Source of the DNA: Eledone cirrhosa
Taxonomy: Eukaryota
Direction: 5' to 3'
Length of the DNA stretch: 64,000 nucleotides
NCBI GenBank assembly: GCA_964016885.1
Contig: OZ024743.1
Span: 310,062,001-310,126,000 of the forward strand
Shown here: in pieces, positions 7,941 to 63,635 of the stretch
Position numbering within the stretch: the first letter of the stretch is position 1
How the letters are laid out: the number at the start of each line of letters is the position of its first letter
Notes under the pieces: generated by a model
What the model saw: the letters and a program-made list of their open reading frames with translations, nothing else
What the model was told of the DNA's origin: nothing
Databases searched by the model: none
Position numbers and translations under genes: made by a program

Positions 7941-8037
7941 TATATATAATAAGAATGTTGAGAAATGACAAATGAGTTGATATATACAATAGTAAAAAGA
8001 AAAGAAAACAGTAGAAAATGCTCATGGGGTTTGCTCA

Positions 8038-8430
8038 TATAATAACAGCAAAACATTTATTCATAAAGAAGAAATTTATCGTACCGGTTTCAGCCACGTG
8101 GGCATCTTCATACTACAGAAGTATATAACAACAATGTATTTAAGTTTATATTAATAAGAATGTGTTATAAAGAAACATGGTTTACATACATATGCCATTG
8201 TTGCAATTATAATCCACACCAACAAAGAGAAAAAGCGTTACACATAAATATGAAGTCTGCTATATATATATATATATGTAAACGATATTTCTTTATAACA
8301 TATTCTTATTAATATACAACTTAAATGCATTATAAATGTTATTATAAATTCCCGTAGTATGAAGATGCCCACGTGGCTGAAACCAGTACGATAAAATTCT
8401 TCTTTATAAATAAATGTTTTGCTGTTATTA
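8038..8430. repeat. Inverted repeat of a pseudo-LTR-like segment with an HHR-like motif
   Basis: 8038-8170 is the reverse complement of 8285-8430; each arm has ATGAAGA-T-GCC-loop-GGC-T-GAAA-CC(G/A)G-TA. Confidence 0.7.
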
Positions 8431-8487
8431 AGTGAGAAAATCCCATTACCATTTTCTAATCCTTTTTACTATTATATATATATATAC

Positions 8488-8767: not shown

Positions 8768-8808
8768 ACAAAGTTCTTTCGTTGCAGATCTGCAACATCA
8801 TCAGTGGT
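8768..8808 (-). ncRNA. Minimal type I hammerhead ribozyme
   Basis: CA-CTGATGA-T-GTTGCA-GATC-TGCAAC-GAAA-GAAC-TT-TG. Confidence 0.75.
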
Positions 8809-9226
8809 ACTATTATTATGTTTCCTCCTTTTGTGTTGTGTTTACGCCATTTTTATTTTATTAAATTAATTAATTTATTTTTGTCTCCGTCTCTGCACAT
8901 GCGCTTGCGTGTGTGTATAATGTTTGGTGTGTGTGTTTGCGTTTGGGTGTATGTGTTTTGGTTTTTGTATTCTATTTTTGTTTATTAGTGCGTTGTTATT
9001 GTACCTTTGTATATATATATATATATATATATTTATTTATTTATTTATATTTCTCTTAAGTCAGTATTGTTTGTTTGAGTATGGTTGTTGTTGTTATTCC
9101 ATTCATTTCTTTCTGTTTAGCTTTGGCTTTCTAAGCTCTATTTCGCTCGCTTCTCTGATTTGCCTACCTGTTGGGGCATTTCTATGTTTAGATATTATTT
9201 TAATTTCTATGTTGTCTATGTTACCG

Positions 9227-10420
9227 TCATATTTTTGTCTGGCGTGTTCGTATAGTACTGAACCATTTTTTTTGTCCTTTTGATTCTCCCCAGTGTTTGT
9301 CTATTCTTTCTCCTATGCTTCGAGCTGACTCACCTATGTATGTTGTTGTCATGTTTCTGCAGGTACGCCCTGTACATCTGATGCTATAGACTACATTTCT
9401 AATTTTACAGTTTATGTAGGGGTACACTTTACATATAACACATTTCTTATTAGTACAGTGGGTTTTCTTAAAGGGGTATGTTTTGCTGATCAGGGATTTT
9501 ATGGCAGTTCCTGGCTTTTCTACTACTTTAATCTTTAAGTGGGTCTTTCTTAGGGCCTTTCTACATCGGTTAGCTAATTTCACTCCAGGGGTAGCATCCA
9601 TGAACATGACGCTCTGATATCTCTCGTTGTCGTAACATGAGGTGGCTTTCCCTATCTTGTGTTTAGTCCTATCTAAGCTATTCCATGATTTGCTCCTGTA
9701 TAATGGGCAAATTCCTTTCATGTCCACTTCTATGAGGCTCTTATACTTCTCCGTGGCTCCTTTGTATACTCTGATTCTGTCTCTTTGGTTGTAGTCAGAG
9801 AACTGCATTGGTTGATGAAGTGTTGGATGTGTCTTTCCATTTCTGATGAGTTGCACATTCGGGACACGTTCTTCATCACTCGTACCAAGTCTGCGATCTG
9901 AATAATAAACTTAGCACTACTGGACATTGCTGAGCTTTTGAGTATCAGGTATTTGGAGGCCATGGGTTTAGCATAGTGTGAGTGGAGAATTTGGGCCCTC
10001 TCGTCTATAGCATTAATCAAAAGTTCCGTGTCTAATACAGGTAGTCTATTGTTAGGGTGTTTGGAAGGGTAGTCAACAGTTACAGTTATACTCTGGTGTA
10101 TGGAGTTAGCTATCTGCTGGATGCTTTCCATTGTGCTATATTCTAAAATATGTTCGTTAGTAGTCTCTTGTGGGGATGTCCTTATTACTATATTAATATC
10201 GTCTACGTAACAATAGTACATGATGAGGTCTATGGAGTTCTATTCAAGGGGATCTTTGAGTCGCCTTTCCCACCATGCCATAAATAGACTGTCAACATCA
10301 CCAGCTATGCTGACGCCGCCAGTGGCTGCTGTCTCATTTTGGGTGTAGATCTTCTCATTGAATTTGAATATATGGCCCTTTCGGGTAGTTTTAATACTAG
10401 CCCCTATTGAATGCGCAATA
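9227..10420 (-). pseudogene. PLE RT C-terminal half plus GIY-YIG endonuclease, frameshifted
   Basis: YYCYVDDINI (YxDD), LPVLDT, HYAKPMAS, Cys linker CTNKKCVIC, NVVYSIRC...YIGESARS. Confidence 0.9.
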
Positions 10421-10439
10421 TATATATATATAATTGTTT

Positions 10440-16257: not shown

Positions 16258-17602
16258 GAGAAGTGTGTCGGAACAGAGTTCAAAAGGTGTGTAGGGGAGT
16301 GGTGGAGAGACATAGAGCGAAAGGAAACGGTGCGAATGAAAAATTAACAAATAAAGACAAAAAATATAATAAATAAAAATAAAGCATGATCAAAATACAA
16401 GGAATGAGAAAATTTAAAAATAAAGGCATGATCAAAATAAACTGAAATTAAGAGGGGGGGTAAACAGGTGGTGGAAGGGTGTGGGGTGAGTAGGGGTGGT
16501 GGCGGGTGGAGTGGGGAGAGGGAGACGGGGTGTCCGAGTGGGGAGGGCTGAAGGTGGTGTGTGTGGTTAGGTGTGCGTGTGTGTGTGTGTGTGTGTGAAA
16601 GTGAGGGTTGGGGGAAGAACGGGGTTGCATGTTCAGGAAGGTGTGTGTGGGGGGTGTTTTTGTGGGTCCGAGTGTCTGTGCGTGTGTGGATAGGGGGTGG
16701 GGGAGAGGAATCAGGAGGCTGAGGGTGTAAATATGTGGTGGGAAGCACGTGTGTGTGGTTTAAGCGTGTTGGGGGTGTGGGTGGCGTGTGGATAAACAAT
16801 TTTTTTTTTTGGGGGGGGGGGTGAGTTATATAGGTGATGGTGTAAGAGGATGGTTGAAAAGTTGGTAAGTTCCACGGATGTTTGGAGATTTGGTTAGAAG
16901 TCAATTTCGCGTGTGGGTAATCCAAGAAGCGGTGGTCGGTAGAGGAGAGATGTGGGGTGCGCGCGCAACAGGAAGTGGTCAGCAGTGGGAGTGCTGTGGT
17001 CAGTTGGTGCTGAGAGGTGGTCGAAAGGGCATAGCAGTAGTCGGCGGAATGGTAGGGTGGCGAGGATGGGTAGGTGTGAGAGTTGGAGTGAGGAGAGTGT
17101 GTGTGTGTGTATTAGTAGGGGTGTTAGTGGGATGAGTGAGTGTGGAGCGGGGAGAGAAGGGTGTGTGTGGTTCTATGGAGGGAGTGTGGTGTACTGGTGA
17201 GTGTGTAGTTTGGTGAAGAGGTGTTAGTGGGTGTTAGTATACGGGAGGTGGGGAGGGGTGGAATGCAGGTGTGAGTGGGGGTTAGTGGTGGTAGGGTGTG
17301 TAGAGTTGGTGGTGTACGAGGGTGTGTGGGTACGTGTGCGTGGGGTTGGGGGGGGGGTGTTAGTGATGTTAGTTGTGTGTGGGGTGGGTGGTGTACGTGG
17401 GTGCGTGTGTGCGTGTGATAAGGAGGGGGAGGAGGAGAAGAGGGGAGGGAAGGGATGTTAGTATGTTAGTTGGGGAAGGGTGGTCAGATGAGGGGTAGAG
17501 TGGAGGTGTTAGTATTGTTAGTGTGGGGTGGGCGGTGAAAATGAGGGGTGTGTTAGTGGTGTTAGTGGGGGATAAGTGTGGGGGGAGGGGGGCGGTCGAA
17601 CG

Positions 17603-17983
17603 CTAAAGGAATAAGGGTGGGGAGTTCAGGCCGGGGGGAGTGTGGGTCTGTAAGATGAAGATAGTGCGTTGTTCGACCGTAAGGCGATGGGCGGGTGTTC
17701 CGTGGCACTGGAGTAGGCCACAGACTGTGAGATGGCGTGCGGAGTGTCCAGGGCCACCAAAGTGGCGGGCGATGGGGGAACTGCCCTCGAGACGAATATC
17801 CCGTCTGTCCGACATAAGTCGCGCTGCACTCCGTGCAACGAAGTCCGTAGACTAGGTTGGAGGAGGTGCAGCGGAAGGCATGCCGGACCGAGAGAGAGTG
17901 GCCGTTGGGACCCTGGAAGGTGGTGGTGTTGGTGATGTGGGGACAGGTGTTGCAGCGGGGCCTAGAACAGGGGAAGGAACCGT
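17603..17983 (-). pseudogene. PLE GIY-YIG endonuclease with internal deletion/frameshift
   Basis: [12 protein letters not shown]...[24 protein letters not shown], then PIARHF...R...EQ..IF.LQT..PPGLN. Confidence 0.9.
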
Positions 17984-18040
17984 ATATATACATATATGTA
18001 TGTGTATATATATATATACATATATGTATGTGTATATATA

Positions 18041-18082
<42 letters not shown>

Positions 18083-18118
18083 AGTCTATATATATATATG
18101 TATGTGTATATATATGTA

Positions 18119-18194
<76 letters not shown>

Positions 18195-18243
18195 AAATAA
18201 AGTTAAATAAAAGTTAAATGATTAAAATTTAGCTTCGTTTATT

Positions 18244-21573: not shown

Positions 21574-21652
21574 TATATTATATTTTGAGAATAAACTCTC
21601 AGTCGTTTACAATAATCAAGCTCCAAGAAAAGGGGCATTTCCGAGCAGTTAA

Positions 21653-22482
21653 ATACATTAAAATATATGATAAACACAAAACGTGTTTGCATTGCAACAG
21701 ACAAAGTTAGCTATTAATGAAATAAACTAATTAAAGTGAATACAATTTGTCTGTCTCGATATAAGTCAATAAAGACAAGCTTATATTGGCAACGGCCATG
21801 ATTCCTGGACAGATTTAAATTTCAAAATCCAAACCTGTTCCGTAGACGAATTTGAACCTCGAAACCTAAATCCGTTTCGCAACGGTGGTATGTGAATTGA
21901 AAAATAAAGAGAATCGAAATGGAATTGAAATAAAAAGTGAAATATCCAAATCCTCTGTGCTTATCAACAGGAATCCAGTAAAATTAGTACATCTCACATC
22001 AAAAATTTTGCAGGTCTGACTACACGTGTGTAGCCAGGCCAAACTAGCCGTCCCGCATTCCCGGTGCTAGAAATAACAGCCGTTTATGCGGGATTACGGG
22101 ACGGCTAGTTTGGCCTGGCTACACACGTGTAGTCAGAGCTGCAAAATTTTTGATGTGAGATGTACTAATTTTACTGGATTCCTGTTGATAAGCACAGAAG
22201 ATTTGGATATTTCACTTTTTATTTCAATTCCATTCTCTTTATTTTTCAATTCACATACCACCGTTGCGAAACGGATTTAGGTTTCGAGGTTCAAATTCGT
22301 CTATGGATTTTGAAATTTAAATCTGTCCAGGAATCATGGCCGTTGCCAATAAAAGCTTGTCTTTATTGACTTATATCGAGACAGACAAACTGTATTCACT
22401 TTAATTAGTTTATTTCATTAATAGCTAACTTTGTCTGTTGCAATGCAAACACGTTTTGTGTTTATCATATATTTTAATGTAT
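21653..22482. repeat. ~830-bp near-perfect palindrome
   Basis: 21653-22063 is the reverse complement of 22089-22482, with a ~25-bp spacer. Confidence 0.9.
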
Positions 22483-22759
22483 ATATATATATATATATTA
22501 ATAATAATGATGATGATGATAATAATAATAAATGTGAATACTAAAATCTGAAGAGCGCTCGATAAGGATTATATATATATATAATCTATAGATAAACCCG
22601 TAGAGCAAATATTTATTATAAGAACAGATTAAAGAGTATAACCAAAGAATCGCTGCTTTCACCCTTAGGATCCCGTTAAGGCTAAAAGCAGCGATTCTTT
22701 GCTTAAACTTTACCCTCCCGAATGAAACAGTCCTAGTCTTGTAGACGTCATTTCTATAT

Positions 22760-22831
<72 letters not shown>

Positions 22832-23032
22832 TATGTACACGTACATACATATATGTATACAGACGTACAGTAGTATGTATATATATATACATACATGCAC
22901 ACATATATATATGTACGTATGGATTCACCGAACATTTATTATTATGCTCGGTGTGTTTGTAAACAAACATCCCGTATTAAGCCGTAGTGTCTAGCAACCA
23001 TCGTTGCTCGTTTGTTCAACACGGACAAAGGA

Positions 23033-23075
23033 ACGCTGTACTAGTTTCAAGCTTATTAGCTATCGTCAGCAACGT
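23033..23075 (-). ncRNA. Type I hammerhead ribozyme
   Basis: ACGTTG-CTGACGA-T-AGCT-AATA-AGCT-T-GAAA-CTAG-TA-CAGCGT. Confidence 0.88.
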
Positions 23076-23450
23076 ATACCTTCCTGCCAGATTGTTGAAC
23101 GTATATACTTACCTTATGCATATTAACGGCTGAGTAGCCCAATTTGCATATCGAGTGGTTAATCGGCCGGGTGCACCGAAAACGATAAACGGAAAAATGA
23201 AACGAAATTTCATTTCCCACTCTTAGTACGGCTGTTACTTAAATATAAGTATGTATACGTACATACATATATGTATACAGACGTACAGTAGTATGTATAT
23301 ATGTATACATACATGCACACATATATATATGTACGTATGGATTCGCCGAACATTTATTATAATGCTCGGTGTGTTTGTAAACAAACATCCCGTATTAAGC
23401 CGTAGTGTCTAGCAACCATCGTTGCTCGTTTGTTCAACACAGTCAAAGGA

Positions 23451-23493
23451 ACGCTGTACTAGTTTCAAGCTTATTAGCTATCGTCAGCAACGT
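23451..23493 (-). ncRNA. Type I hammerhead ribozyme
   Basis: Identical motif to 23033-23075, 418 bp away. Confidence 0.88.
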
Positions 23494-23549
23494 ATACTTT
23501 CCTGCCAGATTGTTGAACGTATATACTTACCAATCTGGCAGGAAGGTAT

Positions 23550-23592
23550 ACGTTGCTGACGATAGCTAATAAGCTTGAAACAAGTACAGCGT
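23550..23592 (+). ncRNA. Type I hammerhead ribozyme, inverted copy
   Basis: Same motif with stem III CAAG instead of CTAG. Confidence 0.8.
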
Positions 23593-23904
23593 TCCTTTGT
23601 CAGTGTTGAACAAACGAGCAACGATGGTTGCTAGACACTACGGCTTAATACGGGATGTTTGTTTACAAACACACCGAGCATTATAATAAATGTTCGGTGA
23701 ATCCATACGTACATATATATATATATATATGTGTGCATGTATGTATATATATATACATACTACTGTACGTCTGTATACATATATGTATGTACGTGTACAT
23801 ACTTATATTTAAGTAACAGCCGTACTAAGAGTGGGAAATGAAATTTCGTTTCATTTTTCCGTTTATATATATATATACATAAAAGTCTAAAGTCTGTCTT
23901 AAGC

Positions 23905-30797: not shown

Positions 30798-31541
30798 ATC
30801 GTCTTTTTTTAATGTATCATGGATTACGTTACTGATTACATAAGACAGTGTAACGCAGTCTTCGTTCAATTTCTGTGCATATTGTCAATTACTATTTTAT
30901 TTGATGTAGCATATCTACATGCATTTATATTTGCGTAAAATATCAATATGCACACTACACATGCTAGCAGAAAACTACCCGAAGGTAGAGAGGGGTCGAG
31001 ATTGGTTTCAGCAGATACAGAGAGGAGGGTTAAAAGAGCGTTTTATGTGACAGACAAATAATAGGAGGGGGGCTAATGGGGCGGAGCTTGGAAAATCATT
31101 AATTATATAGTGTACATTCTTAAATATGCGATTTCTTGTAATGTTCTTCTTTTGTCATATATGTGTTTTTAATGTAAAATAAAATAATTAGATTCTCCAG
31201 CTGCGTATCAATATGAAACAATAAAATTTCGCCGGAGTTAGATTCGCAAAATTTGATAAACGAGGCGTGGAGTCGATTATTCAAGACCTGAGAGTACGTG
31301 AATTATTGACAGACATAAGAATGAAAACTCAAAACCGAAATAGAGTTTAAATATTCATTTATTATGGCCAAGCCTTGTTACTCTGGAGACTCACCTGCGT
31401 ACTCACCAGGAAAGTCTGGTGATACTGTGAGTGCACTTGTAAAATACCAGTATTATACCATTCTCTTACCAAGTGCGAAGAAGCTCGATATATCAACGCC
31501 TTAGGAAAGGGCACAGAGCACAATTTTTAAAAAATGATATA

Positions 31542-32072
31542 CAGGGTGGAGCAGAAAGGTTGCCCCGATTTGAAAGGTTAATAAAAAACAAACACATGAT
31601 CATAAGAGAAATACCTTGTATTTATAATAAGTACATTACATGCCATTAATTTTCTGTTTCAGGTAGTACCCCACCACGACCTGGAGTGGAGATAATCGTG
31701 CATCTGTTGTAGAAGAGTTTCTTAAGAAGGGTGAGTACGTCGTAACGACGCAGCGTTCCTTTCGAAGACACTTTGCGCTTCGTCGTCATGATCCCGTACC
31801 GGATGAAAAAACAATTCATCTGTAGGTTTCTAACTTTAGACAAACATCATCGGCTTTAAAAAAGAAAAGTCCTGGCCGTCCTAGGACCACTAGAGGGCCA
31901 GAAAATGTAGCAGATGTGGCAGCTTCAATACAGCAGTCTCCCAGACGTTCCGCACGAAAACCACTTAAACCTCAATGGCATGTAATGTACTTATTATAAA
32001 TACAAAGTTTTTTCTTATCTGTTTGTTTTTTATTAACCTTTGAAATCGGGGCCATCTTTCTGCCCCACCCTG
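31542..32072 (+). mobile_element. Tc1/mariner-superfamily internal deletion derivative
   Basis: ~100-bp TIRs CAGGGTGG(A/G)GCAGAAAG...ACATGCCATT with TA on both sides; interior encodes an HTH-like transposase N-terminus (TQRSFRRHF...VPDEKTI...NFRQT...KKSPGRPRT..PENV..V...IQQSPRRSARK). Confidence 0.88.
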
Positions 32073-32078
32073 TATATA

Positions 32079-40325: not shown

Positions 40326-40361
<36 letters not shown>

Positions 40362-40529
40362 AAAAAGTATGATCCCGACAGCAGAGCTCAAGCCGTTTCG
40401 ACGGCTATTTCTGGACTATTTAGTCCAGAAATAGCCGTCGAAACGGCTTGACCTCTGCCGTCGGAGTCATACTTTTTCTTATTTCCCACTCTACTACCCT
40501 AAGTATTGAGTATTCTGGTGCGTTATGGT

Positions 40530-40869
40530 TCATTTTTTTTTCAACACATCGTTTTCGGTATGCCTAACCGACTTAGCTCACTCGATATGCAAATTAGGCT
40601 GCTCAGCCGTTAATTTTCATAAGGAAAGTATATACTTTCGAACGTTCAACTATCTGGCAGATGGGTATACGGTGCTAATGATAGCTAACAAGCTTGAAAC
40701 TAGTACATCGTTCCTGTGTCAGTGTTGAACAAAAAGGTGACGTGGTTGCCTTAACACCGTACGGCATAAAAATTCAGGCTGTTCAGTTTGTTTACAAACG
40801 AACAAAGCGGCGTTATAATAAGCGTCTGCTAAACTGATACGTGCATATATGTATGTGTACCTGTATGTA

Positions 40870-40926
<57 letters not shown>

Positions 40927-41366
40927 GCATGCTACTGTACGTCTGTATACATATATGTATGTACGTATACACACATACTTACATTTAAGTAAGTGCCGTA
41001 CTAAGAGTGAGAAATGAAATTTCGGTTTCATTTTTTTTCAACTCATCGTTTTCGGTATGCCTGACCGACTTAGCTCACTCGATATGCAAATTAGGCTGCT
41101 CAGCCGTTAATTTTCATAAGGAAAGTATATACTTTCGAACGTTCAACTATCTGGCAGATGGGTATACGATGCTAATGATAGCTAACAAGCTTGAAACTAG
41201 TACATCGTTCCTGTGTCAGTGTTGAACAAAAAGGTGACGTGGTTGCCTTAACACCGTACGGCATAAAAATTCAGGCTGTTCAGTTTGTTTACAAACGAAC
41301 AAAGCGGCGTTATAATAAGCGTCTGCTAAACTGATACGTGCATATATGTATCTGTACCTGTATGTA

Positions 41367-41450
<84 letters not shown>

Positions 41451-41564
41451 TTCTACTGTACGTCTGTATACATATATGTATGTACGTATACACACATATT
41501 TACATTTAAGTAAGTGCCGTACTAAGAGTGAGAAATGAAATTTCGGTTTCATTTTTTTTTTCAA

Positions 41565-41565
<1 letters not shown>
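40530..41565 (+). repeat. Tandem (497-bp period) second subfamily of the HHR repeat
   Basis: Two units homologous to 22828-23865; HHR-like motifs at 40669-40711 and 41166-41208 with core CTAATGA. Confidence 0.85.
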
Positions 41566-41638
<73 letters not shown>

Positions 41639-42417: not shown

Positions 42418-42966
42418 TATGGTGAACTAACTGTTGTGTGACCACATGTACCTAACTCGTCCCTTGGACTGAGTGCTCTACCACTACGGATATTCCACCA
42501 CTATATATATATATATATAGAAGAAGGTATGACCCCTACGACAGAGCTCAAGCCGTTTCGACGGCTATTTCTGGACTATTTCCCACTCTACTACCCTAAG
42601 TAATGAGTACTCTGGTGCGTTATGGTCCATCTGGTTCCTTACCACAATTCCTTTGTTATATATACATATATATATATATATAAAATATATAAGTTTACAT
42701 ATACATAAACTAGACAGAGCCATAGATATATAGATATATATCTGTGTTTTTGGTAACCATTCACGGTGTGGCTCCATGACGAATTAATTAATTAAATAAT
42801 CAACAATCAGAGCAATATATAAGAAAGTAAGTCCATAGAATCATTTGATAAAATATATACAGTATTTCTCCTACCAATCAGAATAATTAACCACACAAAA
42901 AATTAATTAAACGAGGCTATGAGTTTAAAACGTACGTATGAAGTAATAGATAAATAAATGAAGATT

Positions 42967-43058
<92 letters not shown>

Positions 43059-43174
43059 CTATAAATTAGGTCCATAGAATCAATAGATAAGATATATACA
43101 CCATTTCCTCTCCGAATTAGTATAATCAACGAGACAAAAAAACAATTAAACCAAGCTATGAGATTATGTTTTCA

Positions 43175-43796
43175 TTTTGTCCTTAATTGTAAGTAGTGAT
43201 GTTGCTATACCCTTCATGTTTTCTATTTAAATTTGGTTGGAGTTCATTTATGTTTATTGCCTCTGTGTTTTGTCGATATTGTTATGTTTTGGGAGGGTCA
43301 TGTTGCCAATATGTTGCCAATATATAAAAATCACAGAGGCAATAAACATAAATGAATTCCACCCTAAATTAAATAGAAAACATGAATGGAATAGCAACAT
43401 CACAACTTACAATTAACGACAAAATGAAAACACACACATAGAACAAACAACCAACCAGTAACATGTAAATAAACAATTATAAACACACACAGACACCCGG
43501 ATGTAACACATGCGCAAACTAAGCACATAACACACACAAAACCAAGATAGCGTAGGACAGAACAAAGGAGATGCACAAAAACAAAGAAAAGAATCCCCAG
43601 TCACTGAAGAGGTCACAGAATGTGTGCCGAAAGAAATTTGACAATATGTGAACAAACGTCCGGTTAAGGAACCAACCAACCAACCGGAAATTTATAAATT
43701 CTTGAATTTATAAATATAATTTATAATAAATTGTAGTGAAAGCGACTGGTGCGTGTGTTTCTTATTGGCAACATGACCCTCCAAAAGCATAACAAT
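43175..43796 (+). mobile_element. PLE pseudo-LTR with inverted 5' duplication
   Basis: Same family as 36554-36940; 43175-43270 is inverted versus 43330-43415. Confidence 0.75.
43600..43642 (+). ncRNA. Minimal type I hammerhead ribozyme
   Basis: GTCA-CTGAAGA-GGTCACA-GAA-TGTGTGCC-GAAA-GAAA-TT-TGAC. Confidence 0.7.
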
Positions 43797-43896: not shown

Positions 43897-44155
43897 CTAT
43901 TTATATATATTTATATATATATATATTTATATATATATTTATATATATATATATATATTTATATAAATATATATTTATATATATATATATATATTTATAT
44001 AAATATATATTTATATATATATATATATATTTATATATAGGTTGAAAAAAATGAAAACGAAATTTCATTTCTCACTCTTAGTATGGCACTTACTTAAATG
44101 TAAGTATGTATGTTTACGTACATACATATATGTATACAGACGTACAGTAGCATGC

Positions 44156-44290
<135 letters not shown>

Positions 44291-44504: not shown

Positions 44505-44926
44505 TAAACGGAAAAAATGAAACGAAATTTCATTTACCACTCTTAGTGCGGCTGTTACTTAAATATAAGTATGTACACGTACATACATATATGTATACAG
44601 ACGTACAGTAGTATGTATATATATATACATACCAGCACATATATATATATGTACGTATGGATTCACCGAACATTTATTATAATGCTCTGTGTGTATGTAA
44701 ACAAACATCCCGTATTAAGCCGTAGTGTCCAGCAACCATCGTTGCTTGTTTATTCAACACTGACAAAGGAACGCTGTACTAGTTTCAAGCTTATTAGCCA
44801 TCGTCAGCAACGTATACCTTCCTGACAGATTGTTGAACGTATATACTTACCTTATGCATATTAACGGCTGAGTAGCCCAATTTGCATATCGAGTGGGTTA
44901 ATCGGCCGGGTGCACCGAAAACGATA
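44505..44926 (-). repeat. Single monomer of the 418-bp HHR repeat
   Basis: Near-identical to the 22828-23250 unit; HHR at 44771-44813; further fragments at 44040-44160 and 45298-45470. Confidence 0.85.
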
Positions 44927-45231
44927 ATAAAATTTATTTAGTTACCTTCCTAGCTATGTGTGGTTACATACTTGTAAAAATTATCTCCTGTGATTATTCA
45001 TGTTTATTTATATGTTAATCAATTTCTAGTTATTATAAAATGCTCGGACCAACGCGTTAGAATCTTAGAGCTTATTTTGCGGGTGATATGGCGCAGGTCT
45101 TTCTGGCATGACACCCATAATTTTGATTTAGATTAAATTCATTTGATTTAGATTAATTTTGGATATAGATATATAAATATATATATATATTTATATATAT
45201 ATATATATATATAAATATATATATATATATT

Positions 45232-45270: not shown

Positions 45271-45464
45271 ATTTATATGTATATATATATATATATTAGT
45301 ATGTACACGTACATACATATATGTATACAGACGTACAGTAGTATGTATATATATATACATACATGCACACATATATATGTGTACGTATGGATTCACTGAA
45401 CATACTTATATTTAAGTAACAACCGTACTAAGAGTGGGAAAGGAAATTTTGTTTCATTTTTTCC

Positions 45465-45589
<125 letters not shown>

Positions 45590-48636: not shown

Positions 48637-49330
48637 TTACGTTTTAAATTTATATTTAAACGTTGAGTTCAATCTATGTCTACAGCAACTGAATAAATTG
48701 TTCCTTAGGTTCAGGGAATTTTTGGTCTTTAATATAAAGAATATTTCCTCTATACAAAGATCACAATTTTCTGAAGAGGAGTTAAAAGGAGTAGCTTTTG
48801 AAATAATATTCCAAATCAACGAATATTTAACATTCTTTAGTTTGAGGTATAATAAGCTAGATAAAGAAGTTGAAGATTTTTTGGGGGGATCTGTAAAAGA
48901 ATTTTTATGATTATTGAAGCGGGATTTAAACTCTGTGGAAGTGTATCCCACATAATTAAATGAATTTAAATTAGTTTTTACATTACAATTATATACTATA
49001 TTTTTAGCTAAGCAATTGTTATTTAACGGGCAGTTAGATTTAATTCTACAGTTACATTTATCAAATTGGATATTGCTTGGGTTATTAGTGGTATTTTGGT
49101 TAGGTTTTAAATTTCTATTATTAATTCTATTAATATTTTGCGCTAAGTTTTTGGTGGAAGAAGTTAATTTTATAGTATGTCTATTAAAAATTGAATAATA
49201 TCTATGTGTTCTAAGGAAGCATTTGTCAAGATCTTTAAACAATAGTTTAGCAATAGGGGTTTTAATATTTAATGAGAAAGGAGGAGCGAACCATAATATG
49301 TTCCTAGTTCTATATCTTTTTTTGTTTTCG
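48637..49330 (-). pseudogene. Naiad-type PLE GIY-YIG endonuclease region
   Basis: RNILWFAPPFS...IFNRHTIK...CNCRIKSNCPLNNNCLAKNIVY...NYVGYTSTEFKSRFNNH...CDLCIEE...LN.R..LFSCCRH. Confidence 0.9.
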
Positions 49331-49488
49331 GAATTATTGTAAGGTTTTCTTTTATTTAAAAATATCCAATACTAACTTACCTAATACTATAAGTATAAAT
49401 ATAACTCCACTATCCGGGAGCTTCCAACAGTAATGGTTGCATTCTTTATGTGTATGTCAGTATTTATTCATAAAACTGCTCTATATTA

Positions 49489-50168: not shown

Positions 50169-50375
50169 TTTATATATATATTTTTATATATATATATATA
50201 TATAATCCAAGGGCGGTGCCCCAGCATGGCCTCAGCCGGATGGCTGAAACAGGTAAAAGAGTAAAAGAGTATATATATTTATAACGAAGGAAATGTGGTA
50301 AGAAACCAGTTGGACCATAACGCACCAAAGTACTCAATACTTAGTGTAGTAGAATGGGTAATAGGAACGAATAGG

Positions 50376-50470
50376 ACCCCGACGGCTGAGATTAAGCCGT
50401 TTCTACGGCTAATTCTGGACTAAATGAAAATTTTTATTCTGGTATTTGAATAGCCGAGCTTCTCAGGGGT
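50376..50470 (-). ncRNA. Hammerhead variant (core CTGAGAA, long stem II, real stem III)
   Basis: Inverted copy of 51097-51191. Confidence 0.6.
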
Positions 50471-51096
50471 AATTCCATATATGGTAAAAGTGATTGTCAC
50501 AAGGATTGGTCAAATTTTATTTATTTTTAGCACTGGGTGGTTGCTGGCCTTGTGCCTGGGGTAGAAACCTTTATTTCGTACTGGTGTCGGGACTCTGAAT
50601 TATTATTTCGTGGTAGTTTCTTTAGTATTTTGGCCCCCCACTTGTTGACCCGTCACCGTAAGATATATTCGGTGGTTTACTTATACCTCTTAAAAGGGTC
50701 TCTTTATAATTCCGTCCCACCTAGTAAACCTTTCTTTAGTCTAGCAGTTGCAGTGAGAGACTTGATAGCTGTCATTAGGTTATAGTAACCAGAAATTGTT
50801 TTTTTTACATTTAATTTTTTTTTTCACTCCCGGTATTTTTCTATATATTTACCCAATATTGTTTTACTTATTGTTTCGACTCCCCCCCCCCTAGTATATT
50901 ATTTGACCTCCTGCTCAGCTGTAGTTGGCACTATCAACGCAGCACGTCTGGGTTTCCTCCACCCCCTCTTCCTCTTTCTTCTACTGGCAGGTTCAGCTAC
51001 CCCTTCCCTCCACAAATTGCCATGATAGAATTATTAGTCTCAACAAGAAACTTTTGACCAATCCTTGTGACAATCACTTTTACCATAAATGGAATT

Positions 51097-51191
51097 ACCC
51101 CCTGAGAAGCTCGGCTATTCAAATACCAGGATAAACATTTTCTTTAGTCCAGAATTAGCCGTCGAAACGGCTTCGGCTCAGCCGTCGGGGT
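51097..51191 (+). ncRNA. Hammerhead variant (core CTGAGAA, long stem II, real stem III)
   Basis: ACCCC-CTGAGAA-G..CGGCTA...TAGCCGTC-GAAA-CGGCT-loop-AGCCG-TC-GGGGT. Confidence 0.65.
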
Positions 51192-51296
51192 CCTACTCGT
51201 TCCTAGGCCGGTGGAGGTGAATTGGTACTCACAAGGGAGCGGATGAAAAACCCAAGAACACGCAATGTTCGGAAACATAACCTTATTATGTAACAA

Positions 51297-52906: not shown

Positions 52907-54429
52907 CTATTTATAACATACTTGACCTCCTTTTCAACCCAAGAGACACATAAAATATATGCGCATATTGATCAACAGTGGGGTGACATTCATCAAATGA
53001 TATAGCATGGCAATTTACATATAAATGTTACAGGATAAAAATAAAATAAAAACAAGAGTGAAAATAAAGATAAACATGAAGCGTTGGCAGTCTATGAAGA
53101 TAAAGCAAGAGGAAAGCTTAGAGTAGTCAGTGTATGAAACAATCTCCCGTGTAGCATGCACGCGTGTCTTATCTATACATGATTAGAGTGCGTCAGAATG
53201 ATATTTGCAGGGTCAGGCAGTTGAAGCAGGCAATCGATCTTATTATGTAGACTGAATTATTAAGTCATTTCTTCTCATACATCTGTATGATATACAGTCT
53301 CGGATGCGGGGAAACACCAAAATATCAAAAACCTTCAACATACTATAAACCTTATTGTATCGTAGGCAAGGCCGTACCACTATCCTTGCTCACACCACCA
53401 CTCACATAATCCATGAGACGCAATATATATATAGAGAACACGCGTCTATCGTATAATTCGCGGTGGTTCAGCATATAGTCAAGCTATAAACCGCATCCAG
53501 TCGGTTCTTAATTAATATATCATGCTGTCCAGATTCCGGAAGTGCCTGAATGACTAAGGGGAATTAATGCGTAAGGGGAGGTAACTAGCTAGTTATCTTA
53601 GTTACATTACTATCCTAAACTACAATAATGGTGATTCAAATACGTGCCTATCATGTGAAGTTATAACTAATATCTAGAGTATGTTACCCATTTATAGGTT
53701 AGAGAGTTGTCCATTAAGAAGTACAAGGGTGTATATATTAGGATGATTACCATCCATTAATTAAGTGGTGTTTTATCTGAACGTTCTATAAGAGGAGTCA
53801 GACTCTCAAGTCACTGCTCCATGCAAATGTAATTTAACAGTAGGACCTGGTATGGTCCCAATATTATATATGCCACCCGGTAGGCTCCGGGTCATTGCAT
53901 GCCTGCATCTCCAGTAAATCTTCGGTATGGTCCGGAGATCCAATCTCTCATATAAATGCACTAGTCTGGCCATCAAGCAATAGACAACCCCCGTCTTAAA
54001 TATAAATCAATTATGTATCACATCTACAAGCTAGAGTGGAGTCTATTAATAGGTACTAAAGGAGTTCACATCAAGATGATTACGTGCATAATTCATTGAA
54101 CTGATCGCTTACAGTATATATTCACTTAACAATACGATTATCTATCTAATCATCAATCTATCTCTTGGTGGTAATCCATGCACAGGACTATGTTATCGCA
54201 ACCAGTACCGTGTCCCCAATTTATGCTAATCTTATATTTGTGCAATGCAGAATAAGTAGTCCACGGTCGAGATATCAGTATTAGAGGTACAAGGGGGTAT
54301 TCCCAGGGTAGGTGGTACTAAAATACTGTCAGTATTATCTTTAGAGTATAGAGATGGGTGTGGATGTGAGGTGTAAGGTGAGGCTACTGATGTTAATTGC
54401 TAGGGGTGGTGCCGGTTCCAGTCTGACAT

Positions 54430-55310
54430 TATTATATATAGGGTTTAAAGTTTTGGAACGAGTGTCGGAAGCGGTGTTGGCAATTTGCGAACACTTCTGA
54501 TTTTTTATTAAGGAGATATGTTTAGAGAAGATGATAGTATGGGTCTCTAGTAGACAGAGGTTACAAAATTTATCAGGTGGTTTGTACGATGTTGCACTAC
54601 CTACCACTTCCCATTTAAGTGTATATATTTTAATTTTAGTTTTTAGATAGTGTATGTAGCTAGATAGTGAAGTGGAGTTGGCTAGACTGTGTTTTTTGAA
54701 AGAGTGGAGGTGCGAATTGTATCTAGTTTTGAAGCAGTTAGAAGTGGAGCCTATGTAGGTTTCAGAAGAGCTGTTAGTTGTGACTGTACATGAGTATATG
54801 ATATCCTTGGTTAAGCATTTTTTATCTAAAGGGCAGGTTCTACTTGATCTACAGTTACAATTACTCTGGGTGCTAGTCTGCCGGTTACTATGCTGTGTAG
54901 AAGTTTGGATGTTAGCTATAGGGTTATGGTTATGCGGGTTGTGGTACGCAGCGTTAATGTTTACACTAGTGCTATTACTATTATTTCCATTGATATTACG
55001 GTTATTTGTTATAATATTACTTTCACTGTTATTTTGAATGTTATTTTGAAGGTTTATCGACCGTTGTGATTTAGTTTATTGGAAGTAAGAATTAATTTTT
55101 CTTTTATTTGTACTAGCTATGTGTTATGCTAGGTTAGGCGTAGTAGAGTATGAGATCTTAATAGTGTTTTTGTTTAAAAGGCCGTGGTACCTGTGGCCGG
55201 ATGGGTAGTGTTTATCTAGTAGTGAGAAGAAAGCCCCAGGAAGGTTGGTAGAGACGTTTAAATTGAAAGGAGGGTTGAAAAATGTATTATTTCTTCTTCT
55301 ATTTCTGTTT
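54430..55310 (-). pseudogene. Naiad-type PLE GIY-YIG region, frameshifted
   Basis: RNNTFFNPPFNLNVSTN...LLDKHYP..HRYHGLLNKNTIKISYS...CNCRSSRTCPLDKKCL..DIIY...TYIGSTSNCFKTRYNSH...CNLCLLE. Confidence 0.88.
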
Positions 55311-56267: not shown

Positions 56268-56453
56268 AGATATATATATATATTTATATATATTTATATT
56301 TATATATATATATATGAAAAGTGTAAGTTTCTACACAAAACGAAGGTTATAGAGAAAATTGAGGTTGGTAATGGCACATGGAATATATAAGAGACAGAAT
56401 ACTTTTTTGTGAAAAAACATAATTTTATAAGGTAAGGAAAGAATAAAGGGTAT

Positions 56454-56503
56454 AACAAATGACCGGTTTCGATGGGTCTGCAAAAGCCATCTTTTCAAAT
56501 GTT
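56454..56503 (-). ncRNA. Hammerhead ribozyme, U3:A8 core variant
   Basis: AACAT-TTGAAAA-GATGG-loop-CCATC-GAAA-CCGG-TC-ATTTGTT. Confidence 0.75.
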
Positions 56504-57549
56504 GATTAATATTAAGAAAAATTAATAATAAGAAGGGTTAAAATTTGAGATTTGAAAATTCAAGTATAAAATTCAGTGTGGGATTTCATAGTAGTTTTCA
56601 TCTTGGTAGCAGCAAGTTGACTGCTGTGTGTCCCTTTCTGATAGTGAATGAGGAATTATTTGTGGGGAGTGGTTTTTTTTCAGGTCAGATTTAGCAATGG
56701 CCAGATGGCCAGCTGCTGGTCAGTGAGGGGGTGGAAGCAATATACATACATATATCTCCATGTGGTCGGTAGGAGAGGGGAGAGTGAGAGAAAGGGATTT
56801 AGTGCACTTACACCTATATATACACATACCCTCATCCACACACACATACATATAAATATACATACATATATATATATAAACACACACATACACACACACA
56901 CAAATACATATACATACACACATACACACACACATACACACACACACATATATACACATACACACACATATATATACACACACACACATATATATATACA
57001 TACACATACACACACACACATACATACACACACACATATATACATACACACATACAAACACACACACACATATATACACATACACACATATATATATACA
57101 CACACACATACATACACATACATACATCCACATGCACACACATACACTCACACACATACACATACATACACCCACACACATAGAGAAATGGCCTCCAAAT
57201 ATATATATATACATACATACACATATATTTTTTACATAATATAAGAAGTTAGAACAGTGAAATTAAAATACAAGTCATTATGATCACATTGAGTTCTTCA
57301 TGTAGATTGGGCCCCACAACCGACAGTGGTGAATTCTGTGTGCGCATATATATATAGATACATGTGTGTGCACGTTCAGGGTTTAACATGGATGCGTTGG
57401 TCACACAAAGGCATGTTCTGTCAACGAATAAACCTGAATCTACAGAATTGGTCTCTGGTCTTTAATAGTAGTGATAATTATATACATGCACACATACACA
57501 CACATATCTGTCACTCCGTGCGTATGTGTGTTTATATTTTATGACAATT

Positions 57550-60500
57550 CTATTGGGGTGATAACCCGTTTAGTTTTGGTTTACATTTGTTAAGGAATAG
57601 ATTTTCTTTTTTTATTCTTTGTTGCTGTGTGAACGAATCTGAGCACTTGTAGAAGGGGAAGATTTTAAAGTTGGGTTGTGTCATTCCTGCGCAGTTTGCA
57701 ATATGGCTGCTCAAGGGATTTTTCTTCTGTTAGCGTCCCGGATTTGTTGGCGGTGGATGGTCATTCTTTTGCATAATGAGGCGCCCGTCTGTCCTATGTA
57801 GTTGTGTTTGCACCCACCGCAAGTTATTGCGTAAATCAAGTTCTCCGAGTTGCAGGTGAAATTGTTTTTCACTGTAAATGTTTGGCCATCTTTAAATGTA
57901 AATTTGTGTCCTTCAGTGAGGTAGAGTCACGCTCCACAGTTTGTTCTACCACATTTGGTAACTGTAGGGTTGAGGATTGGTTTGAGTATATTTGGTCCAG
58001 TGAGAATGCGTTTTAGTGATTTGGGTTGTCTTTTACTTTTAAGGATCTTGTGTGTTTCAAGAATAAACTTCATTTTATATCTTTAAGTAGGATGGGGAGG
58101 TTTTTGTGTAGGTGATCAAACATTTCGGTATTTCTGGGGTTGAAAGTGGATACATATGGCAAGGTGTTGAGTGTGGTTTTCTGTTTTGGCTTGTTAATTT
58201 GATGGGGATTTAGGTGTTTTGCCATGTCTATTCCATTGTTGATTATTTCAAGTGGAAAGGCTCTTAAGATAAGGGTGTCTTTTAGTTCCTTTAGTCTTTG
58301 CTCCCGTTTAGGTGGATCTGATACTATGGTACATATACGTTTGGCCAAATTGTCAGGAATGTTAAGTTTTGTATGTTTTGGGTGACTTGATGTGAAAAAG
58401 AGGTATTGCTTGGAATCTGTGGGTTTATAGAATATATCTGTATCTAATTTCCCGTCTATTACAGAGATGAGAATATCCAAGAAGGCTAATTCCTTGGGAT
58501 TGGATTCCATTGTGAATTGTATGTTATTATCTATGTTGTTTATCATGTTTTTAAACATAGTAAGTGAGTTCATGTCTTCTTGCCATAGGATAAAGCAGTC
58601 GTCTAGATATCTTTTCCAATTAGCTTTGAGGTGTGTGTGGAAGGAGTCTCCAAATAAGAGAAGGGACTGACTGTATATTTGTTGTTCATGGAATCCCATG
58701 ACTAGGTTGGCCTATGTGGGTGCTACTTTCGTGCCCATTGCAGTACCTGATACTTGTCTGTATGTTGAACCATTGAATGTGAAATAGTTATTTTGTAAGA
58801 TAAAGCGGAGTCCGTCAGTGATAAAATCTTTCTTGATGCGTGTCGGTATTTCTGATGGGTGTGTGTTAAGCCAGTATTGGACTGCTGTTATTCCATAGTT
58901 GTGGGGTATGTTTGTGTATAGGTTTATTACGTCAAAGGAGACAATAATTGTATTTGCACTTACTGTTTTAGGGAGGTGTTTCAGCATGTCAAGGTCATCT
59001 CGTATGTAGCTCTGTATATGTTGTAGAAAGGGTTTCAGTAGGATGTCCAGAAAGTTGCTAAGTCTGTGGGTTTCACATGTAGGGCCTGCTATAATTGGCC
59101 TGAGTTTTAGGTCTTCTGGTGGTGTTAGTTCAATGTAATTGTTGGTTGAGGTGTCACATGCATCGTTTATGGGTTTACATTTGTGGAGTTTCGGTAAGCC
59201 GTAAAATGAGCTTGTATTGCATTTGAAGTGGCTTATATAGTTAAACTCTTTTGTGGTTAAGCTGTTGCGGTATTTATTCAGTAAGGTCAAAAGGTTCCCC
59301 ATTGTTTTGTTGTGTTTGTAGTTTTCTGTTTTTTCATAGTATGTGTTGTTTTCTAAAATGTTAAGTGCGAGGGTCCTATAGTAGTCCGTATTCATAATGA
59401 CAACAGTACTGCCTTTATCGGCTTCTTTGATGGTTATCTCAGGGTTGTTTCTAAGTGTGAATAATTCTTCCCATTCGTGTGTAGATAGGTTTGATTTCGT
59501 GTGTTTATTTGTAATTTTTTCATAGGGAAAGTTGGTGATGTGTTCGCAGTACGTGTCCAGTGCTTTATTTCTTCCCTTTTGTGGGCAGAAATTGCTTTTA
59601 TTTCTAACCAGTGATTCGTCTTCAGTGTTGGTGTCGTTGTGGAAGAATTCCGTTAGTCGCAGCTTTCGGCAGAATTCTATGATGTCATCCTTCATTTCGG
59701 GGAAGTTTGGTTTACGTGGTGTAGGTGTAAATTTCAGGCCCTTACTTAAAATGTTGATTTGTGTGTTGGTTAGAGGTGTCTTTGAGAGGTTGATTATTTT
59801 TGGTTTCTCCTGAGGGGGGAGGGGGCGCATCGAGTATCCTGGTATTTCAGGCTTTTCCCTAAAAAAGGAATGTAGTTTTGTGTGTGATTATATTTTGTTG
59901 GTCTGTTGCGTGTGGTTCTGTAGCTTGTTGTTTCATGAGGGTGAATGTGATGGTGGGGGTGGTATGTGTTGTGGTTGTTAATGAGCAAGGGTTCTGTTGT
60001 TGGTTCATGTGGTCTGGGTGCGATATTTCTGTGGTACAGAGTGTTGAGGTTGGGGGTTGTCTTTTGTTGGATTGAGGGTGATGTCTGGTGTGGTTGTGGG
60101 TAAGTTCTGTTGTGATTTCAAGTGGTCTGGGTGGGTTTCTTCTGAGGAATGTGGTGTGTGTGTTGTGAGTTGGATCTATGTTATTTCGTCGTTGGTTTAT
60201 GTAGGGGTATTTCTACTGAAACCTGTGTTGTGGTGGTTGGGTGTGTTTCTTTTGGTGTAGTTGGCCGTATTTGGTTTGTGTTGGTGGGGGATGTGCCTGT
60301 GGTTAGTGTGTGTTGGGTTTGGTGGTGTAAATGTGTCTGTTGTAGTTCTTGTTATGTTCAAATGCTTTATAAAGGAGTTACCTGTTTGGTGCGTCCTTTT
60401 AAAGTCTTCTTCATATTTGAGGAACCAGTTTTCGGATTTTTCCCACCCTATAAGGGAAATAATTTCTGCATTCTCGCAGTCCTGTTTCCACGATTTGATT

Positions 60501-61097
60501 AAATTTTGTAGGGTTGTTGCCTCGGCCTTTTTAGTGCATTCTTCCTCCATGTTTTCATCAGTATCATTATACTCTTGCACGTTGGAGGTGGCCCTTAATT
60601 TTAGGAGTTCTATTTCCATGTTTATCCTGTTGAGTGACATTTGTTCACGGAGTTTTCTTTCTGGTTCAGGTTCGTTTGTAATATGCTTTATTTGGAATTT
60701 ACGTGGTAAAACTATCGGTGTTGAGTTAATCCATTTCTGGTAAATTCCAGCTTTGTTGAGGTTTTTTATCATATTCCAGAAAGTGAATTTTCTGGTTTTT
60801 TATCATATTCCAGAAAGTGAATTTTCTGGTTTTTAGATGTTTTTTCCAGAGGTGTCCCATTTGGTTTTTGATATGGAGCAATGTTTTCTGTTCTGTTTTG
60901 GTATTCATAAGTTTTTCGATGGAGTTGCATACGTTTTGAACGTTTAAATAAATGTGGTTGTCAGTCAGTGTGGTGGTTTGGGGTATATCCTGTTTTTTTG
61001 TCAGAATGGTGAGTTTACCATTTATCTCTTTTAGAATTTTCAGGATTTCCTCATTTATATTGGAGTTTGAAGTTGTGTTGTCTTGTTCCAGTGCCAT
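57550..61097 (-). pseudogene. PLE polyprotein (N-terminal region, RT, GIY-YIG) with several frameshifts
   Basis: IINLS...LSKGLKF.PTP; KEADKGS.VV; FYGLPKLHK; LRPIIAG; VSFDVINLYTNIP; QVSGTAMGTKVAP; RYLDDCF; LAFLDI; YKPTDSKQYL; LIYAITCGGCKHNYIGQTG. Confidence 0.95.
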
Positions 61098-61266
61098 TTT
61101 CCGGATTTGCGTAGGTTAGTATATATGAAAAATGTAAGTTTCTACATAAAACGAAGGTTATAGAGAAAATTGAGGTTGGTAATGGCACATGGAATATATA
61201 AGAGACAGAATACTTTTTTGTGAAAAAACATAATTTTATAAGGTAAGGATAATTTATAAAGGGTAT

Positions 61267-61316
61267 AAAAAATGACCGGTTTCGATGGGTCTGCAAAAGC
61301 CATCTTTTCAAATGTT
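61267..61316 (-). ncRNA. Hammerhead ribozyme, U3:A8 core variant (upstream pseudo-LTR copy)
   Basis: Same TTGAAAA-GATGG...CCATC-GAAA-CCGG-TC motif, ~170 nt upstream of the ORF ATG at 61097. Confidence 0.75.
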
Positions 61317-61667
61317 GATTAATATTAAGAAAAATTAATAATAGGAAGAGTTAAAATTTGAGATTTGAAAATTCAAGTATAAAATTCAGTGTGGGATTTC
61401 ATAGTAGTTTTCATCTTGGTAGCAGCAAGTTGACTGCTGTGTGTCCCTTTCTGGTAGTGAATGAGGAATTATTTGTGGGAAGTGGTTTTTTTAAGGTCAG
61501 ATTTAGCAATCACCAGATGGCCAGCTGCTGGTCAGTGAGGGGGTGGAAGCAATATACATACATATATCTCCCTGTGGTCGGTAGGAGAGGGGAGAGTGAT
61601 AGAAAGGGATTTAGTGCACTTACACCTATATATACACATACACTGATCCATACACACATACATATAC

Positions 61668-61709
<42 letters not shown>

Positions 61710-62449
61710 CAAAATACACACACACACACACACACACATATATACACATATACACATACACACACATATATATGCATACACATACATCCAGATATACACA
61801 TACATACATATACATACACATATATATATATGTACATACACATATATATACACACACACATACATACACACGCACATATATACATACACACATACAAACA
61901 CACACACACACATATATACACATACACACACATATATATACACACACACACACATATATATACATACACATACATCCAGATACACACATACATACACACA
62001 CACACATATACATACACATACATACATCCACATGCACACACATACAAACACACATACACATACATATACACCCACACACATAGAGAAATGGCCTCCAAAT
62101 ATATATATATACATACATACACATATATTTTTTTCATAATATAAGAAGTTAGAACAGTGAAATTAAAATACAAGTCATTCTGATCACATTGAGTTCTTCA
62201 TGTAGATTGGGCCCCGGAACCGACAGTAGTGAATTCTGTGTGCGCATATATATAAAGATATATGTGTGTGCACGTCCAGGGTTTAACATGGATGCGTTGG
62301 TCACACAAAGGCATGGTCTGTCAACGAATAAACCTGATTCTACAGAATTGGTCTCTGGTCTTTAATAGTAGTGATAATTATATACATGCACACATACACA
62401 CACATATCTGTCACTCCGTGCGTATGTGTGTTTATATTTTATGATAATT

Positions 62450-62947
62450 CTATTGGGGTGATAACCCGTTTAGTTTTGGTTTAAATTTGTTAAGGAATAG
62501 ATTTTCTTTTTTTATTCTTTGTTGCTGTGTGAACGAATATGAGCACTTGTAGAAGGGGAAGATTTTAAAGTTGGGTAGTGTCATCCCTGCGCAGTTCGCA
62601 ATATGGCTGCTCAAGGGGATTTTTCTTGTGTTAGCGTCCCGGATTTGTTGGCGGTGGATGGTCATTCTTTTGCGTAATGAGGTGCCCGTCTGTCCTATGT
62701 AGTTGTGTTTGCACCCACCGCAAGTTATTGCGTAAATCAAGTTCTCCGAGTTGCAGGTGAAATTGTTTTCTACTGTAAATGTTTGGCCATCTTTAAATGT
62801 AAATTTTTGTCCTTCAGTGAGGTAGAGGCACGTTCCACAGTTTGTTCTACCACATTTGGTAACTGTAGGGCTGAGGATTGGTTTGGGTATATTTGGTCCA
62901 GTGAGAATGTGTTTTAGTGATTTGGGTTGTCTTTTACTTTTAAGGAT
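62450..62947 (-). pseudogene. Duplicate GIY-YIG coding segment in the upstream partial tandem copy
   Basis: KCGRTNCGTC linker; NLIYAITCGGCKHNYIGQTGTSLRKRMTIH...KFKPKLN. Confidence 0.9.
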
Positions 62948-63604
62948 CTATAATTATCACTACTATTAAAGACCAGAGACCAATTCTGTAGAATCAGGTT
63001 TATTCGTTGACAGACCATGCCTTTGTGTGACCAACACATCCATGTTAAACCCTGGACGTGCACACACATATATCTATATATATATGCGCACACAGAATTC
63101 ACTACTGTCGGTTCCGGGGCCCAATCTACATGAAGAACTCAATGTGATCAGAATGACTTGTATTTTAACTTCACTGTTCTAACCTGTTATATTATGTAAA
63201 AAATATATGTGTATGTATGTATATATATATATTTGGAGGCCATTTCTCTATGTGTGTGGGTGTATGTATGTGTATGTGTGTGTGTGTGTGTGCATGTGAA
63301 TGTATGTATGTGTATGTATATATGTGTGTGTGTGTGTGTATGTATGTGTGTATCTGGATGTATGTGTATGTGTATATATGTGTGTGTGTGTGTTTGTATG
63401 TGTGTATGTATATATGTGTGTGTGTATGTATGTGTGTATATATATATATATGTGTATGTACATATATATATATATATGTATGTATGTGTGTGTGTATGTG
63501 TATGTATATATATATGTGTGTGTATATATATATATGTGTGTGTGTATGTGTATATGTGTGTGTGTGTGTATGTGTGTATGCATATGTATGTGTGTGTGTA
63601 TGTA

Positions 63605-63635
<31 letters not shown>

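Follow-up and report, generated by a model that had tools for sequence, protein, structure and literature searches.

The window (the whole 64-kb stretch of DNA that was analysed) contains, at 22828-23865, a repeat with a computed period of 418 bp. Read along the minus strand, which carries the hammerhead ribozymes (HHRs), the locus is composed of an inverted arm (23865-23532; 334 bp), unit A (23531-23186; 346 bp), the unit junction, unit B (23185-22828; 358 bp) and a (TA)n tract. A sequence-only reading of the same DNA had described two head-to-tail units, 418 bp apart, with an inverted copy directly adjoining them. The spacing was recovered both as the period and as the cut-to-cut distance (418 nt), and self-comparison of the sequence found the 334-bp arm at the place indicated; the head-to-tail arrangement was likewise recovered, but both units proved to be partial, the direct tandem amounting to 358 + 346 = 704 bp, i.e., 1.68 units. 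The following features were distinguished:

22828-23185 (minus strand): unit B, the 358-bp direct arm, without the last ~60 nt (the tail) and running into (TA)n
23186-23531 (minus strand): unit A, 346 bp, truncated 5' at the inversion junction, where ~72 nt of the unit are missing
23532-23865 (plus strand): inverted 5'-truncated copy, 334 bp, stopping at the full tail end and joined to TA
23186-23245 (minus strand): ~60-nt tail between two recurring 3' end sites, holding a hairpin; putative RT start region
23255-23338 (minus strand): internal self-complementary arm, rich in TA/CA, which belongs to the unit itself and is enlarged in a sister subfamily
23039-23456 (minus strand): predicted 418-nt cut-to-cut monomer, with the unit junction inside (271 + 147 nt)
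23154-23221 (minus strand): predicted junction-spanning helix; one of its pairs (23217/23158) shows a compensatory change in the sister subfamily, from G-C to A-U
23033-23075 (minus strand): type I HHR B, predicted cut between 23039 and 23038
23451-23493 (minus strand): type I HHR A, predicted cut between 23457 and 23456
23550-23592 (plus strand): HHR carried by the inverted arm, with a broken palindrome in stem III

In the HHR motif, stem I measures 6 bp and the core is intact; stem II (4 bp) is closed by a tetraloop and has a U.U mismatch at its base, and the loop of the 2-bp stem III is palindromic. The complete type I HHR that had been claimed for each unit is present in A and B, albeit with the U.U mismatch, which is predicted to weaken stem II (the catalytic fold lies 1.4 kcal/mol above the predicted MFE); the palindrome ascribed to stem III is likewise retained in the loops of A and B but lost in the inverted copy. 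Two consecutive units with a complete type I HHR (A and B, 418 apart), by which the preprint on animal retrozymes recognizes such repeats (10.64898/2026.07.22.740005), are thereby found at the main locus. A descriptor scan placed the family HHRs at 23069, 23487 and 44807 (minus strand) and 23556 (plus strand), which make up four of the seven matches in the window, against a mean of 0.025 matches in 40 block shuffles of the window. Stems I-III are 100% paired in six window copies of the HHR, one stem I pair appearing as UG, AU and GU, and covariation in this six-copy alignment does not go beyond that of shuffles. The Rfam search returned no hammerhead among the matches listed (150 of 165) and none at E<=10 on 22990-23190; its miRNA-precursor matches score below the gathering thresholds and are due to TA hairpins and to the inversion. 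HHR-like cores of other repeat families were observed at 11367, 16255 and 36752 (minus strand) and at 35804, 38613, 43604, 45927 and 63961 (plus strand); those at 36752, 45927 and 63961 pass the descriptor, and those at 36752, 43604 and 63961 belong to one family.

The 418-bp unit is ORF-free, as had been proposed, the longest stop-free frame within 22828-23865 encoding 61 aa. A profile made from 120 proteins of Penelope-like elements (PLEs) gave no match in or beside any copy of the repeat family within the window, which bears out the earlier statement that no RT or GIY-YIG coding sequence is attached to any of them. A single ORF combining RT and GIY-YIG, the hallmark of an autonomous EN+ PLE, is absent from the unit; instead, both forms of the repeat are short tandem units (418 and 497 bp), AT-rich (GC below the 50% applied to retrozymes) and devoid of coding capacity. 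A splice-donor-like site at the 23532 inversion junction of the 418-bp locus is not conserved in the sister subfamily.

Nine segments of the family are present in the 64-kb window. Besides the main locus, these include:

44505-44927 (minus strand): unit-length monomer, junction to junction, with an HHR at 44771-44813
45298-45470 (no single strand assigned): second direct + inverted composite, with a 106-bp tail-less direct arm and a 66-bp inverted arm with tail
40527-41567 (plus strand): dimer of the sister subfamily, 497-bp period, 2 units + ~20 nt, both HHRs carrying G5A (40677, 41174)
44047-44197 (minus strand): 3'-terminal fragment of the sister subfamily, stopping at the tail end in (TA)n

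The monomer had been reported as an exact copy (44505-44926); it is of unit length, but its identity to the units of the main locus is 94.5-96.4%. The fragments reported at 45298-45470 do belong to the family, and their structure is that of a small direct + inverted composite. The sister subfamily (497 bp, ~18% diverged, also tandem and ORF-free) was overlooked in the earlier reading; the alignment of its unit covers all 418 positions, 77 of which are substituted, and shows no inserted coding sequence. The sister dimer is young, with one difference in 194 columns between its units (99% identity), and the identical core change in both of them suggests that the template already carried G5A or that the duplication came after the mutation. 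G5 is an important position of the HHR core (hammerhead numbering is used here for core positions), and with G5A in both units the dimer lacks a complete HHR in two consecutive units. Both subfamilies show ORF-free head-to-tail junctions in the window, as do two public runs (X1 and X4), in which the contigs are short.

Beyond the 5' boundary of the monomer, which lies within 2 nt of the unit junction, there are 235 bp of non-TA sequence (44928-45162), followed by (TA)n; neither a long match in the rest of the window nor a match to the PLE profile was found for this segment. The 5' end of the sister dimer also joins non-TA DNA, which there is a different repeat family. Members of that family (40361-40526, 42519-42660, 50311-50514 and 51053-51205) form palindromic composites beside (TA)n and have a 12-mer in common with the tail of the 418-bp element; the member at 40361-40526 abuts the dimer via a 3-nt overlap. 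More long inverted-repeat composites, some of them abutting (TA)n, were observed at 7980-8481, 21650-22485, 31537-32077, 43167-43432 and 50362-51205, and are possibly further direct + inverted insertions.

In public sequence data, 7,663 contigs of run X1 match the unit, at depths that add up to ~10^6; this figure does not measure copy number, and the sample behind X1 may be the one from which the window was taken. Together with the nine window segments, this very high depth identifies a multi-copy family, as expected of retrozymes. Variants inside the HHR that reach at least 8% in X1 are confined to N7, loop 2 and a single pair of stem I (23036/23072). The core is free of them, which is compatible with constraint but, taken by itself, falls short of significance (P about 0.25 for 4 sites). 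The unit junction is bridged by 4 of the 8 X1 pieces listed and by two X4 contigs, one per subfamily. Runs X4 and X9, which bear other organism labels and match over 22914-23290, hold both subfamilies at trace depth (3-36), and their sister-type contigs have no change listed at 23067, the G5A site. These trace matches may equally reflect contamination, diet, close relatives or transfer, and no cross-species spread is claimed. Of the small-share runs X13-X20, X20, which is taken to be an RNA run, was the one compared with the unit, and none of its contigs matched; no RNA run was listed among those that contain the family either, and neither result bears on expression. Exact-pattern scans of metagenome, prokaryote genome and viral contigs gave no match to the unit, and three of its 12-14-nt motifs were not found in literature text.

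The cut-to-cut monomer is predicted to fold with a z score of -6.1 as a linear molecule and -6.9 as a circle (67% paired), and its antisense with -5.7. When the fold of the main family was tested on the sister subfamily, 7 compensatory pairs (double changes) were counted where 2.4 were expected (P 0.007), and the broken pairs numbered 18, compared with an expectation of 31. The excess of compensatory pairs held with the TA-rich arm left out; the reverse test, of the sister fold on the main family, gave 5 such pairs (P 0.03), and the antisense control 4 (P 0.19). The test compares two subfamilies, with a null that ignores clustering of substitutions. Compensated pairs are found, among other places, in stem I, its extension, a long-range arm and the helix spanning the unit junction. 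Since stem I, the long-range arm and the junction helix are among them, the ORF-free unit, including its junction, appears from these comparisons to have persisted through about 18% divergence. The monomer is predicted to be highly self-paired, and the compensatory excess indicates that its structure is conserved between the subfamilies, as in retrozymes. In a read-through transcript from the minus-strand flank, HHR A is predicted to pair with the 334-bp inverted arm, so the 22828-23865 locus would be a poor source of monomers and other copies are likelier sources. A motif which we take to be octamer-like occurs in both subfamilies ~40 nt past the junction (23142-23149 and 44880-44887 on the minus strand, 40587-40594 and 41084-41091 on the plus strand). 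Newt satellite 2 is described as using an snRNA-type promoter (PMC2220036). The motif was rejected as promoter evidence, 4 of its 9 window matches being these family copies and 6.1 matches being expected by chance.

All seven outer 3' ends of the family, which come from this one 64-kb window, abut (TA)n. Five of them lie at the tail end (23865, 44505, 45469, 41567 and 44047), and the other two (22828 and 45298), which are the direct arms of both direct + inverted composites, ~60 nt earlier (56-61, blurred by TA microhomology). The placement of all copies in (TA)n by the sequence-only reading is correct for the 3' ends but not for the 5' ends of the monomer and the 497-bp dimer, which abut non-TA sequence. 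Relative to the predicted cut, the tail end is located 271 nt and the second end site ~210 nt in the 3' direction, from which it follows that cleavage does not define the inserted unit. Six of six copies long enough to reach the cut site run through it and none ends there. A linear cut monomer could give only copies that end at that site, so the template is a circle or an uncleaved multimer. At two loci the 5' end falls close to a whole number of units (1.00 and about 2.04), which hints weakly at a circle.

PLEs are reported to form partial tandems flanked by an inverted copy with a truncated 5' end, to have a tail of 30-40 bp that is often confined to one end, and to insert with a bias toward microsatellites; the tail and the tandem/inverted structures are described as absent from TPRT of non-LTR elements (PMC8557442). 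In the family described here, a partial tandem with a 5' inverted copy and a one-sided tail is present in both composites (2 of 2), next to the microsatellite target at 7 of 7 outer 3' ends. As far as it can be read from these ends, the combination of tail end positions and 5' inversions is the tail/inversion footprint of PLEs. A Poseidon PLE protein is reported to cut AT-rich DNA in vitro, to extend both strands and to start at two internal sites bounding the tail; HHR mutations had no effect on insertion in that assay, in which unprocessed RNA was the dominant substrate (PMC11167929).

The window is rich in remnants of coding PLEs. A decayed RT + GIY-YIG element at 56316-63900 (minus strand) retains RT pieces at 58073-59887, with a stop, and GIY-YIG at 62453-62947 and 57553-58082; its layout (an upstream partial copy, a 5' inverted arm and a 3' end in (TA)n) is that of the 418-bp locus. 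It carries a U3-A8 variant HHR near 56480 and 61290, a long TG/TA tract inside its repeat, and a DKG motif and CX4CxxC linker of the Neptune/Nematis type, an assignment made by motifs. The best-scoring named homolog of the neighboring RT is a bivalve protein (45% identity). Further RT/endonuclease remnants lie at 8800-10437, 17565-18221, 48640-49371 and 54344-55075 (all minus strand); in the first, a PLE piece (9230-10437) is followed by a long-helix-II HHR-like motif at 8804 ending directly in (TA)n. Blastn found no similarity between the unit and the element at 56316-63900, and no partner PLE was matched within the window. Given this lack of nucleotide similarity and its different HHR, the element was ruled out as the parent; it shows the class of machinery and not the partner.

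Among known systems, animal non-LTR retrozymes are closest to the repeat (PMC7229834; 10.64898/2026.07.22.740005). As described there, these are short tandem repeats of low GC content and without ORFs, each unit carrying a single canonical type I HHR; they occur as monomers and dimers together with PLEs, and the unit size found here lies within the reported ranges (150-450 bp; 51-972 bp). The HHR resembles HHR_Amex2 of axolotl, with a U.U at the helix II base and a 2-bp helix III; this active retrozyme HHR reached 22% cleavage in monomeric form and more in dimeric form (PMC7229834). The geometry (6/4/2 bp, palindromic loop 3) is that of metazoan canonical HHRs (PMC4209133). What sets the repeat apart from these retrozymes is the PLE-type tail and inversion ends in (TA)n and the internal TA/CA-rich arm; expression, cleavage and circles are predictions for the 418-bp unit. 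EN+ PLEs such as Neptune and Poseidon likewise have partial tandems, inverted 5'-truncated copies, one-sided tails, microsatellite or AT-rich targets, an HHR in the repeat and 3' ends independent of the HHR cut (PMC8557442, PMC11167929, PMC4209133). In contrast to them, the unit has no RT/GIY-YIG ORF, measures 0.4-0.5 kb and carries a canonical-type HHR instead of a min-HHR, and its tail is ~60 nt long vs. the published 30-40 bp (PMC8557442). Non-autonomous Chlamys elements such as MRC1 are likewise PLE derivatives with pLTRs and head-to-tail insertions, but they come from a green alga, canonical HHRs are absent from most Chlamys elements, and their 3' ends are those of identified partners (PMC8557442), while here no partner was matched within the window.

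The link between animal retrozymes and PLEs has been proposed (PMC7229834) and argued by phylogeny (10.64898/2026.07.22.740005), the support cited in these texts being co-occurrence, common HHRs and pLTR phylogeny. The retrozyme class and its PLE link are already in print, and the repeat itself is ordinary: in those defining features that a sequence can reveal, it is a further member of the animal non-LTR retrozymes, non-autonomous PLE derivatives. What holds of the original proposal of a candidate retrozyme or circular RNA is a non-autonomous, HHR-bearing tandem unit of the retrozyme kind, with a conserved fold, two ORF-free subfamilies and PLE-type ends.

We propose that the ORF-free unit is a non-autonomous retrozyme copied in trans by a PLE protein, probably from a self-cleaved and re-ligated circular RNA, through the following steps: (i) tandem copies would be transcribed on the HHR strand; (ii) by analogy to tested retrozymes, two HHRs would cleave, probably as a dimer via the palindromic stem III, and release a 418-nt monomer to be closed by a host ligase; (iii) judging from the ends, the PLE protein would bind near the unit junction and nick (TA)n, and reverse transcription would start internally, at the tail end or ~60 nt upstream; (iv) it would proceed on a circular or uncleaved multimeric template, as indicated by the copies, which traverse an intact HHR and, in some cases, the junction; and (v) priming on both target strands would yield two cDNAs joined at their truncated ends, giving direct + inverted composites with a tail on one side only. 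PLE-type mobilization of a non-autonomous unit, i.e., steps (iii)-(v) with an internal RT start in (TA)n, a circular or multimeric template and two-strand priming, is in our judgment likely; it is the circle in step (ii) that lowers the confidence, and the complete statement is one toward which we only lean. Several observations speak against it: G5A is present in both HHRs of a young dimer, and the HHR is dispensable for PLE insertion in the cited assay (PMC11167929); from one subfamily to the other, 17-18 of the predicted pairs are broken, and the antisense folds well too (z -5.7 vs. -6.9); only one of nine Xenopus retrozyme dimers was reported to cleave (10.64898/2026.07.22.740005); no partner PLE is found within the window; and the Rfam matches listed include no HHR.

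Some of these observations would be accounted for by a non-autonomous mini-PLE copied from uncleaved tandem transcripts, with an inherited HHR that is weak or protein-assisted and with no need for a circle. All the end evidence fits such copying equally well, as do the G5A dimer, the dispensability of cleavage in vitro (PMC11167929) and the predicted weakness of stem II. We nevertheless consider it unlikely, as the core is unchanged among the family-wide variants and in the sister-type contigs of X4 and X9, the 5' ends at two loci lie near unit multiples, and comparable repeats are reported to yield circles in coral, mussel and axolotl (axolotl: PMC7229834).

It is less likely still that the unit belongs to a coding PLE as its 3' pseudo-LTR and that the copies are 5'-truncated debris, in which case 44928-45162 could be the parent's upstream 3' UTR. 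The monomer boundary close to the junction, with non-TA sequence beyond it, and the abundance of PLE remnants would suit this origin, and most min-HHRs in genomes are reported to sit in truncated PLEs (PMC4209133). However, ORF-less head-to-tail junctions recur in both subfamilies and two runs, 44928-45162 has neither a long match in the window nor a PLE-profile match, the non-TA DNA at the 5' end of the sister dimer is another repeat family, the HHR is of canonical type and not of the long-helix-II or U3-A8 types of coding PLEs in the window, and the share of X1 that runs on into unlike sequence is 0, although the pieces listed measure at most 163 nt. Finally, a satellite or foldback/MITE-like repeat that was amplified at the DNA level, through recombination at (TA)n, and whose HHR is incidental would suit the hairpins on both strands, the internal TA arm and the flanking inverted repeat, but is highly improbable in view of the fixed 3' and variable 5' ends, the compensatory changes that favor the HHR strand and an HHR descriptor match rate far above that of shuffles.

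For the trans-mobilized retrozyme that we favor, the added value lies in the end anatomy: the tail, the inversion and the targeting of (TA)n are visible on ORF-free units, and no report of tail/inversion footprints on retrozymes was found in the open papers and the main text of the preprint. This anatomy places the RT start sites to within a few bases, which makes the choice between a circular and an uncleaved template directly testable with a small RNA. More tentatively, the footprints may record two-ended PLE TPRT around a ligated 418-nt circle, with RT starting at the junction-spanning helix and producing unit-multiple cDNAs, a possibility that we regard as doubtful but worth stating. If true, the circle-to-genome step, which for animal retrozymes is so far a proposal, would have direct evidence, and an RNA of ~0.4 kb would be established as one mobilized in trans into (TA)n by a PLE protein.
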